A model generated the notes under the pieces. The model was not told the origin of the DNA. It was given only the letters and a program-made list of their open reading frames with translations, and made no database searches. Below, in pieces: positions 801-3,103 of a stretch of 14,833 nucleotides of DNA. Numbering within the stretch: the stretch's first letter is position 1; every line of letters starts with the position of its first letter. The position numbers and the translations under genes were made by a program. The DNA comes from a virus, in UHGV virus genome UHGV-0120089, one strand, 5' to 3'.

Positions 801-1111
801 GGGATTACTCCCCATCAATCCAGTCCGCCCACCATTGCATCATTTCTCTGCGCTTAACGTGGCAGATGCCTCACTATCACACGGTGATGGTTCATTACTG
901 GTTTGCAGAATGGATAGAGAACTGAGGATAAAAGATATCCCAAAACTCCAAAATCTCATCTTTAGGATTTGCAGAAAGGGAGGCGTGAACAAATACCTGC
1001 GCATGAAAACGGAACTAGTCCAGATGTGATGTTTGTGGTGATCACATACATCATCAACGATGCTCGTTATGGTGAGTTTTATGACTGCCAAGTAATGTGA
1101 AAATTGCGATG

Positions 1112-1135
1112 CGTACCAAATTGTGTACCAAATTA
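1112..1135. repeat. Tandem direct repeats CGTACCAAATTG / TGTACCAAATTA (candidate integrase or excisionase arm-type sites)
   Basis: Two adjacent 12-bp copies sharing the GTACCAAATT core, seen directly in the sequence. Confidence 0.5.
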
Positions 1136-1362
1136 AAATCATAAACCATGAAACCCTTACTCATGGCTGTTCTCAGGCTGGGTGCGTGTAATCGTGAAAG
1201 AGAAAGGTAGGTTGCTTATCTGTGTCTGTCATTGTCTAGCATTGTCCACTGTAGTTAATTAACTGCCTGTTATAACTCGAAAAACAACCATTTTTTCACC
1301 TGAGTATGTCTACGAACGTCAAATATAGTTGTTTACTGTGCGCTGTTGTCCATGTGATATTG

Positions 1363-1407
1363 TGTACCAGATGTGTACCAAACTATTAATTCTGAGCGTA
1401 CCAAATA
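1363..1407. repeat. Three more copies of the GTACCA(A/G)A motif immediately upstream of the integrase start
   Basis: TGTACCAGA (1363-1371), TGTACCAAACT (1374-1384), CGTACCAAATA (1397-1407); the last copy ends 7 bp before the int ATG at 1414. Confidence 0.5.
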
Positions 1408-1413
1408 TTATTT

Positions 1414-2592
1414 ATGGCTATAAGCGACACAAAACTGCGTACTATTTATGGTAAACCATATTCGGGCCCACAAGAAGTGGCTGATGCTGATGGCCTCAGC
1501 GTACGAATTTCACCGAAGGGGGTCATCCAGTTCCAGTACCGCTATCGCTGGCATGGCAAGCCTAATCGACTTGGGCTTGGTCGATACCCATCCCTGTCTT
1601 TGAAGGATGCCAGACAGATCACTGCTGACTTGCGAAAGCTCTATTTCTCAGGAACGGATCCACGCACTTATTTTGAAGAGAAGGTGGAGAACTCCATGAC
1701 GGTCGCCCAGTGTCTCGACTACTGGTTCGACAACTACGTCTCTACAACTCTCAGAGAAAAGACCCAGGCACTTTACCGATCAACGGTTATGAAGCGCATG
1801 CATGACGCCTTTCCTAATCGTCCGGCATCTTCTATCACGGTTAAGCAATGGGTTGACCTGCTTACCGAAGAAGAAAGAGATAATCCACGCCGAGCAAGGC
1901 AGGTGCTAAGTCAACTAAGATCAGCAATAAGTTGGTGCATGCGGCGTCAGTTGATAGATAGTTGCGCAATTATGAGCATCCAACCAAGGGACTTCGGCTC
2001 CCGCGCTGAGGTAGGGGATCGGGTACTGTCGTATCACGAACTGGCTAAGATTTGGCTTGCTATTGAAAGAAGCCGTGCGTCTACGTCAAATAAGCTACTT
2101 CATCAGATGCTTATGCTGTGGGGGGCGAGGCTCTCAGAGCTTAGGCTGGCAACAAAGACAGAATTTGACCTGCTGGACAACGTATGGACCGTACCGAAAG
2201 AGCATAGCAAGATGGGCAATGTTATCCGCCGTCCAATCTTCGAACAAATTAAGCCTTTCCTCGAAAAGGCCATGACAACGTATAATGATGTTCTTTTCCC
2301 TGGAGAAGACATAAGCAAGCCGATCAGCATCGCTGCAGCCAACCGATTCGTAAATAGAATAAGGGGAGGGATGGATCTAGGTTACTGGCGAACACACGAT
2401 TTCAGAAGAACGCTTGTTACACGTCTGTCCGAGATGAATGTCGAGCCTCATGTTACTGAGCGAATGCTCGGTCATGAACTTGGCGGGATAATGTCAGTAT
2501 ACAATAAACACGACTGGATAGAGGCTCAGCGCAAAGTGTATGAGCTTCACGCTGATAAATTGTTCTGGCACATCAGGAGCATTTCTGATTAA
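1414..2592 (+). CDS. int: Tyrosine site-specific integrase, P4-type (N-terminal arm-binding domain plus catalytic domain)
   Basis: 392 aa. N-terminal GLSVRISPKGVIQFQYRYRWHGK is typical of the P4-integrase arm-binding (DUF4102-type) domain. C-terminus carries the catalytic signature: R in GARLSELR, HDFRRT (H-x-x-R), and LGHELGGIMSVYNKHDW (His and nucleophile Tyr). Confidence 0.93.
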   Translation: MAISDTKLRTIYGKPYSGPQEVADADGLSVRISPKGVIQFQYRYRWHGKPNRLGLGRYPSLSLKDARQITADLRKLYFSGTDPRTYFEEKVENSMTVAQCLDYWFDNYVSTTLREKTQALYRSTVMKRMHDAFPNRPASSITVKQWVDLLTEEERDNPRRARQVLSQLRSAISWCMRRQLIDSCAIMSIQPRDFGSRAEVGDRVLSYHELAKIWLAIERSRASTSNKLLHQMLMLWGARLSELRLATKTEFDLLDNVWTVPKEHSKMGNVIRRPIFEQIKPFLEKAMTTYNDVLFPGEDISKPISIAAANRFVNRIRGGMDLGYWRTHDFRRTLVTRLSEMNVEPHVTERMLGHELGGIMSVYNKHDWIEAQRKVYELHADKLFWHIRSISD

Positions 2593-2764
2593 CGCCACCG
2601 TTAAGAATCCACCCCTCAACAGCTTCACGAAGGTATGATTTGGGGTGGGTTCTGACTGGCTTCGGAAATCCGTGCCGTTTGGTATAGTTCCAGATTGTCT
2701 GACGTGATGAAACACCGAGCTTGTTCATCACTTCTTTCTCAGGAATCAGGCTGGTATCGGTCAT
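2573..2764 (-). CDS. AlpA/Xis-family excisionase or transcriptional regulator
   Basis: 63 aa; the central stretch SSRQTIWNYTKRHGFPKPV resembles the winged-helix motif of AlpA-family proteins (e.g. LSRSTIYRLIKEGKFPKPI). Convergent with int, 3' ends overlapping by 20 bp. Confidence 0.75.
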   Translation of the reverse strand: MTDTSLIPEKEVMNKLGVSSRQTIWNYTKRHGFPKPVRTHPKSYLREAVEGWILNGGVNQKCS

Positions 2765-2824
2765 CTTAATTCTCCAGGCAAAAATAAACCGCCATATAGC
2801 GGCTCTATCAGATATGAACAGGCC

Positions 2825-3103
2825 TCATCGAGTGTGAGGCTGTATGATTCCATGGTTACCTCTGCTTTTTGAACGCATGTCACGTAACTTCTTAATGTGT
2901 TCTGCCGTTTCGATCTCTTCTGCTATCCGATCTGCATCAGCTTTATTCACAGGTTCAAAGTCATGATTAAAGCGGAACATGCTGGCGATACATGTTCTGC
3001 CTTTTCGGATGTAGTGAACTTTGTTGTGGGTAGAACGCAGGATTTTGCAGGGAGTGCCGTGGTGGTCGACGTACCAGGTGTTAGGAAAAATGATTCTGAA
3101 CAT
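2825..3103 (-). CDS. Hypothetical 92-aa early-left accessory protein
   Basis: ORF in operon orientation between excisionase and TraR-like genes; no family recognised. Confidence 0.5.
   Translation of the reverse strand: MFRIIFPNTWYVDHHGTPCKILRSTHNKVHYIRKGRTCIASMFRFNHDFEPVNKADADRIAEEIETAEHIKKLRDMRSKSRGNHGIIQPHTR

Follow-up and report, generated by a model that had tools for sequence, protein, structure and literature searches.

Judged from its sequence, the segment at positions 1032-1413 of the 14,833-bp stretch of viral DNA analysed here (the window) is the complete and intact attP of a lambdoid phage, of the integration type of phages 2851, Sf101, mEp234 and HK544. Its core recombines with the 5' end of sbcB (exonuclease I), where the identical sequence occupies codons 13-17. 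Two clusters of GTACCA(A/G)A repeats flank this core, and we consider it very probable that all five are arm-type sites recognized by the N-terminal domain of the adjoining integrase (Int). The element is an ordinary P4-like attachment site rather than a new kind of element; it corresponds to the sbcB-type attP already on record and is built along the lines of the P4/KplE1 model.

The preliminary description had reported five repeats in two clusters, and this count proved correct: GTACCARA has exactly five matches in the whole window, all on the + strand and none elsewhere, and no additional degenerate copy appears in the att region when two mismatches are allowed. The copies start at 1113 and 1125 in the left cluster and at 1364, 1375 and 1398 in the right one, and all five are direct. 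The two left copies are spaced 12 bp apart and the three right ones 11 and then 23 bp; counted from the int start, the pair is at -301/-289 and the triplet at -50/-39/-16. Between the last repeat and the int ATG there are 8 bp, or the 7 bp given previously if the trailing T of GTACCAAAT is counted. Table 1 lists the positions of all features.

Table 1. Coordinates of the attP features and neighbouring genes in the window.
Feature	Position	Strand	Remarks
Arm-type repeat P1, GTACCAAA	1113..1120	+	P arm
Arm-type repeat P2, GTACCAAA	1125..1132	+	12 bp after P1; ends 54 bp left of core
Terminator-like hairpin, then T-run	1144..1168	-	between core and P2
attP core, TGTAATCGTGAAA	1187..1199	.	13 bp; published core CGTAATCGTGAAA, 'type 2851'; crossover with sbcB
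Phage-borne replacement sbcB 5' end, MTDTDKQPTFLFHDY	1187..1232	-	ATG 1232-1230, down to core
TGTC(C/T) block 1, candidate excisionase (RDF) sites	1223..1247	+	at 1223, 1233, 1243; includes ATTGTC repeats
Palindrome, AGTTAATTAACT	1253..1264	.	12 bp, perfect; chance frequency
TGTC-type block 2	1307..1351	+	TGTCT 1307, CGTCA 1317, TGTCC 1347; phased 10 + 30 bp
Predicted int promoter	1332..1361	+	-35 TTTACT 1332-1337, 18-nt spacer, extended -10 TGtGATATT (hexamer 1356-1361)
Arm-type repeat P'1, GTACCAGA	1364..1371	+	first of triplet; 164 bp right of core
Arm-type repeat P'2, GTACCAAA	1375..1382	+	11 bp after P'1
Arm-type repeat P'3, GTACCAAA	1398..1405	+	23 bp after P'2; 8 bp before int ATG
Tyrosine integrase, 392 aa, N-terminal arm-DNA-binding domain	1414..2592	+	Pfam, PDB matches
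AlpA-like small HTH protein, candidate excisionase (RDF)	2573..2764	-	overlaps int 3' end

The crossover core, which the preliminary description had left out, is a known 13-mer. The GenBank records of mEp234 and HK544 annotate CGTAATCGTGAAA as a 13-bp 'prophage attachment site (type 2851)', and this sequence maps to the core position in the window with a single difference, T for C at its first base. [quoted passage not shown] The motif of the repeats is unrelated to the core and is present on both of its sides, with two copies to the left and three to the right. At the DNA level, window 813-2849 and the attP-int segments of Sf101, mEp234, EC.P3 and E212 share 97% identity, while HK544 and HK140 match from about 1032 on and many records of Stx-converting prophages match from 1188 onward. 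The integrase is 99% identical to that of the type-2851 phages (Stx2c phage 2851, Sf101, mEp234, HK544), and the window is the same element as their attP, with the same target; beyond the first base of the core, it differs by a synonymous G>A at 1203. In the accessible literature and annotation, which does not include the original 2851 paper, earlier descriptions of this site consist of the 13-mer only or of a 147-bp 'putative attP' in HK140. In the Sf101 paper the term 'arm' does not appear, and 'repeat' is used twice, once of the O-antigen and once in the title of a reference (PMC4159516).

Junctions of lysogens, when aligned to the window, divide it at the core. What the window has in common with attR is the left flank as far as the core, with both left repeats in it; with attL it has in common the core and all that follows to the right, with the three right repeats. 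The opposite side of each junction is sbcB, and the repeats are not present in these host flanks. After integration, P1 and P2 pass to attR, and P'1-P'3 to attL beside int. It had been proposed that the two prophage ends be compared for a shared core duplication, and such a duplication exists: the 13-mer is found at both ends of sbcB-integrated Stx prophages, and in the prophage LC645408 it is annotated 'duplication due to insertion' at both ends. The earlier suggestion that the target might be a protein-coding gene, given that no tRNA was visible, is borne out by sbcB, and ARAGORN detected no tRNA in the window. Rfam covariance models gave no match at E<=1 in 900-1500, and no core-type Int sites, in the form of inverted repeats around the 13-mer, could be identified by inspection.

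The integrase itself has the domains expected of a protein that contacts two kinds of site. Residues 4-85 match the Pfam family PF13356 (Arm-DNA-bind_3; E 8.4e-18, 64.7 bits against a cut-off of 27), and residues 1-77 match PDB entry 3JTZ, annotated as a CP4-like integrase (E 1.8e-11). Residues 204-366 match PF00589 (Phage_integrase; E 2.6e-16), residues 42-364 match lambda Int, and the catalytic R...HxxR...H...Y signature (R239, H328, R331, H354, Y363) is invariant in the alignment with relatives. The gene lies to the right of the core and is read away from it, which is the arrangement that had been proposed for the attachment region of a P4-like integrase. The expectation of arm-type integrase sites in this region likewise fits the observations, as the repeats flank the core, Int carries PF13356 and the layout is conserved. 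Int molecules bound to the repeats would bridge arm and core sites to form the intasome.

Conservation of the repeats can be followed over a wide range of relatives. In Sf101, mEp234, HK544, HK140 and at the attR of Stx prophages, the P1 and P2 8-mers are invariant while the surrounding P arm is only 82-92% identical. The more distant phages SEN34, phi349 and yong2 (60, 57 and 54% Int identity) have the motif GTACA.A. at the positions seen in the window, the pair at about -303/-291 and the triplet at about -52/-41/-17 from the int start. We extended the comparison to 80 further loci (84 in all) with integrases 43-99% identical, from Enterobacterales to Vibrionaceae (Escherichia, Buttiauxella, Erwinia, Pantoea, Serratia, Tatumella, Xenorhabdus, Gilliamella, Vibrio, Photobacterium and others). 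In 73 of the 84 loci, three direct repeats spaced 11-12 and 20-24 bp apart abut the int start, compared to 1/84 shuffled and 0/84 coding controls; the layout is retained in relatives with integrases 43-74% identical. The P-arm pair was observed only in four phage-form lineages and in P4, because prophage loci show the attL side only.

The sequence of the arm motif varies among these loci in classes that follow lineage, with variants that include GTACCAAA, GTACA.A. and GTGTCCAA. GTACCAAA occurs in the window, in Buttiauxella and in some Pantoea and Tatumella, GTACA.A. in most Enterobacterales and G(T/C)GTCC(A/T)A in Vibrionaceae; GTGCCCAA and GTGTATAT are each confined to single lineages. The G variant of P'1, GTACCAGA, is also kept in one Buttiauxella locus (L012). 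Inspection by eye of N-domain residues revealed no clean single-residue correlate that separates GTACC- from GTACA-type integrases. The layout is the same whether the locus adjoins sbcB or tRNA-Arg, and since it is independent of the target in this way, the repeats are part of the integrase module and not of the host site.

Three other origins of the repeats deserve consideration. Functionless repetition, by chance or through base composition, has a single point in its favor, the shortness of an 8-bp motif, and is already excluded statistically: shuffled windows contain a mean of 0.47 copies of GTACCARA and none of 200 reached five or more, every copy lies on the same strand inside 300 bp, and the layout recurs in diverged loci at a frequency far from that of the shuffled controls. 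We regard its probability as negligible. That the GTACCAAA repeats are sites for the AlpA-like excisionase (recombination directionality factor, RDF) rather than for Int is unlikely. It would fit with an AlpA-like gene adjoining int and with the known ability of RDFs to bind direct repeats in att arms, but the characterised RDF sites of KplE1, the nearest system to have been studied, are int-proximal, between core and int promoter, with the motif GTTCG/GATCG/GTCCG, and this window and 56 relatives contain a separate class of repeats of the same position and motif type, biased to one strand and phased at 10 bp. The GTACCARA copies instead flank the core at the positions of P4's annotated arm repeats (GenBank), and the arm-binding domain of Int needs a cognate site. 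Still less probable, in our estimation, is a role as operators for a transcription factor acting on int only, or as promoter or leader elements, with no part in recombination. Three copies do lie in the predicted int promoter and leader, the last one ending just short of the ATG; however, two identical copies lie about 290-300 bp upstream, across the crossover point, and in a lysogen this left pair sits tens of kilobases from int, at attR. The position of the left pair is conserved in SEN34, phi349 and yong2. Arm-type sites for Int are thus the reading we prefer.

A different question is whether the region is an attP at all. The preliminary description had expected attL here, which would place a prophage-host boundary within or just left of 1100-1413, and it is true that the part from core to int becomes attL in lysogens. 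The sequence to the left of the core is, however, phage P arm and not sbcB: this flank aligns with free phages (from 813 in the case of Sf101, from about 1032 in those of HK140 and HK544) as well as with the attR end of prophages, whereas the host flank of real attL junctions is absent from the window. Moreover, free phages have this intact P-core-P' junction in their genomes, and in some O157 chromosomes it separates tandem prophages. The attL reading, which we rate as very improbable, is already contradicted by these alignments. Because phage DNA lies on both sides of the core, the attP is intact and no prophage boundary falls in the window.

An example of the tandem arrangement is found in an E. 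coli O157:H7 chromosome (L092; NZ_CP040107.1, 2014829-2015436). Here two neighbouring prophages meet at an intact P-core-P' site, 94% identical to window 813-1420, with the tail-fibre/nleG7 end of one prophage on one side and the integrase of the other on the opposite side. This junction indicates that tandem prophages occupy sbcB.

The core and P'1 are separated by a second class of repeats, the TGTC type, which forms the densest cluster of TGTC(C/T) in the window (1223, 1233, 1243, 1307, 1347). Block 1 includes the ATTGTC repeats that had been noticed between the clusters, at 1231-1236 and 1241-1246, and overlaps the phage-supplied sbcB replacement start; block 2 reaches into the spacer of the predicted int promoter. 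In relatives the second repeat class is GTTC(A/G) (L012-L066), roughly -215 to -55 from the int start. In the interval from core to P'1, 56 distinct relatives show a strong preference of GT[TC]C for one strand (GTTC 126 vs 14), and pairs occur at spacings of 10, 20 and 30 bp (30, 20 and 16 pairs) and almost never at others. TorI, the RDF of KplE1, binds GTTCG/GATCG/GTCCG in two blocks between the core and the promoter (PMC2951348), and the TGTC class resembles these sites in position, motif type and block structure. By analogy, we consider the TGTC repeats candidate sites for the AlpA-like excisionase. The earlier expectation of excisionase (AlpA) sites in this region is plausible for the TGTC/ATTGTC repeats, in view of their strand bias and 10-bp phasing, rather than for the GTACCAAA repeats.

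The AlpA-like protein has a weak match to Pfam AlpA (E 0.003, below the cut-off), and a homologue is annotated in RefSeq as an AlpA family regulatory protein; a comparison with TorI gave no significant similarity (E 1.1). The 12-bp palindrome AGTTAATTAACT lies where the preliminary description had placed it, yet there is nothing remarkable about it: the window contains 4 perfect 12-bp palindromes against 3.5 expected, and relatives keep only its TTAAC...CTG part. With this frequency and lack of conservation, we ruled it out as a core or an operator.

Transcription of int is predicted to start within the arm-site triplet. A strict scan for the sigma-70 consensus gave no match on either strand in 1000-1500, and a looser search yielded the predicted int promoter, with an 8/12 match and an extended -10. 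This TTTACT-18-TGnGATATT element abuts P'1 and is conserved, with the hexamers shared by genomes of Buttiauxella, Xenorhabdus, Providencia and an Enterobacteriaceae MAG; five loci (L012, L023, L025, L026, L034) have it in the same place with different spacers. The predicted start, at about 1368, falls inside P'1. The relatives of the tRNA-Arg type have TTGCCA-18-CA(T/G)AAT instead, with the -10 inside P'2. As the arm sites overlie the predicted promoter or start in both types, we infer that Int regulates its own gene through the P' sites: P'1-P'3 cover the predicted start and the int 5' leader, and bound Int would repress int, as do P4 Int and KplE1 IntS. KplE1 IntS is known to repress its own gene from arm sites overlapping the int promoter, repression of intS by both IntS and TorI was shown experimentally, and autoregulation of P4 Int by binding near the int start is cited in the same work (PMC2951348).

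The phage also appears to restore the gene into which it inserts. In lysogens, MTDTDKQPTFLFHDY fuses in frame to host sbcB at attL, giving MTDTDKQPTFLFHDYETFGTHPALDRP... compared to the native MMNDGKQQSTFLFHDY..., and because of this in-frame fusion of the replacement 5' end the exonuclease I reading frame is preserved. An equivalent replacement segment is found in SEN34, whose sbcB core is the same; in the window, the segment shows one difference only, the synonymous A for G at 1203. No convincing leftward promoter for the reconstituted sbcB was found in 1000-1500 by the strict sigma-70 scan; TATAAC at 1274-1269 on the minus strand was rejected, as it has no good -35. On the other side of the core, mEp234, HK544 and HK140 retain the terminator-like hairpin of 1144-1168, though with an altered sequence. 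At attR the orphaned sbcB promoter would be directed at this hairpin, which may stop leftward read-through into the prophage.

Compared to P4, the window shows the same overall plan with different sequences. In P4, too, int is transcribed away from the core and the integrase has an arm-type DNA-binding domain. The 'attP arm sequence repeats' annotated in GenBank are two tandem 12-mers on the far side of the core from int, ending 53 bp from it, so that both the tandem spacing (12 bp) and the distance to the core (53-54 bp) are as in the window; on the int side P4 has another tandem pair of 12-mers, together with a single additional copy at the int ATG. The differences are that P4 Int is only 25% identical to the window Int, that its arm motif is (T/A)GGGGGCA, and that its int-proximal copy is inverted and overlaps the ATG, with a further copy inside int, whereas the copies in the window are all direct. 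The P' arm is also shorter, 112 bp in P4 and 164 bp in the window. The target of P4 is the 3' end of tRNA-Leu, unlike the sbcB 5' end used here.

KplE1 (CPS-53)/HK620 offers a parallel for the predicted int promoter: its own is embedded in attL, with P' arm sites that overlap the -10 and the leader up to the ATG. Its RDF sites, of the GT(T/C)CG type, form two blocks between core and promoter like the candidate TGTC blocks of the window. The proteins are distant, as IntS is 21% identical to the window Int and TorI shows no significant similarity to the AlpA-like protein, and the arm motif, which contains TAAA, differs. KplE1 targets the 3' end of argW, which lies on the int strand, whereas the gene targeted here runs opposite to int and is entered at its 5' end. 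Integration at a tRNA 3' end, typical of the KplE1 type, does not describe the window, in which there is no tRNA and the target is the sbcB 5' end (PMC4159516).

Like the attP of the window, lambda attP (P1, P2, P'1-P'3) is served by a heterobivalent integrase and has its arm sites divided two and three across the core, with a close 11-bp spacing inside the triplet; the catalytic parts of the two integrases are detectably homologous. The N-terminal domain of the window Int (PF13356) is of a different family, and int points the other way: in lambda it is transcribed from pL/pI in the direction of attP (PMC2951348), and therefore has no promoter overlap with the arm sites. IHF sites between arms and core, a feature of the lambda type, were also not found in the window. 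A search for WATCAANNNNTTR with at most one mismatch gave only two overlapping matches, at P'2 (1376-1391), and the total of 17 is that expected by chance (16.9). In phi349, the P arm (L009, about 965-977) carries a perfect IHF consensus, AATCAATGACTTA, between the P2 repeat and the core, and the window has no IHF site at the equivalent place.

To the left of the P arm, TACTGTATATGCATACAGTA at 201-220 is a near-perfect LexA (SOS) box, 21 bp upstream of a 79-aa ORF (241-480) that overlaps a UmuD-like ORF (480-800) by one base. Relatives of the latter are annotated as S24 peptidase or UmuD-like, and it has no Pfam match. This looks like a phage-borne, SOS-regulated umuD-like operon beside attP. 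Further to the right, a match to the 3' end of UmuD-like genes, from HK140, HK639, BTP1 and other phages, covers 1030-1100, and 813-1030 is common only to Sf101, mEp234, EC.P3 and E212. The arrangement suggests a mosaic joint, or an insertion that split an ancestral umuD-like gene just outside the P arm.

Targeting of tRNA 3' ends is the usual mode of integration. In one group of relatives (L009, L010 and L035-L059; for example L035:1233-1307, minus strand), integrases 51-57% identical adjoin the 5' end of tRNA-Arg(CCU), which lies on the strand opposite to int. In the attP of this type, the initial ~23 nt of the tRNA are present (GTCCTCTTAGTTAAATGGATATA), along with what appears to be a conserved promoter for leftward transcription (TTGAT(T/G), ~18 nt, TAnnAT). 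The integrases of this group would then target the 5' rather than the 3' end of a tRNA gene.

It is tempting to read these observations jointly, although we hold the combined reading only tentatively and would not bet on it. Its first part is a large uncharacterised integrase clade that would span Enterobacterales, Orbaceae and Vibrionaceae, with a rigid scaffold of 2+3 arm sites in which the 8-bp motif was re-specified repeatedly (GTACCAAA, GTACA.A., GTGTCCAA, GTGCCCAA, GTGTATAT). Its second part is that the sbcB- and tRNA-Arg-targeting lineages compared here would target the 5' ends of genes (sbcB, tRNA-Arg CCU) and bring along a replacement 5' end, with a promoter in the P' arm that reads leftward, and would in this way keep the target gene expressed under signals supplied by the phage. 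If true, the re-specified motifs are a natural series from which a recognition code of the PF13356 arm-binding domain could be read.

With respect to the accessible annotations and papers, what is new is the mapping of arm sites, candidate RDF sites and sbcB replacement start, as well as the breadth of the integrase clade with this scaffold. The map, which covers the whole attP with the predicted int promoter, provides targets for studying integration, excision and the tandem arrays of sbcB prophages, and it could be of use in the design of integration vectors and in the automatic delimitation of prophages in genomes. The element adds an example to the P4/KplE1 paradigm of self-repressed integrases and leaves that paradigm unchanged. 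Its biological weight lies in its carriers, as the sbcB-type module is borne by many Stx1a, Stx2a, Stx2c and serotype-converting phages of E. coli and Shigella.
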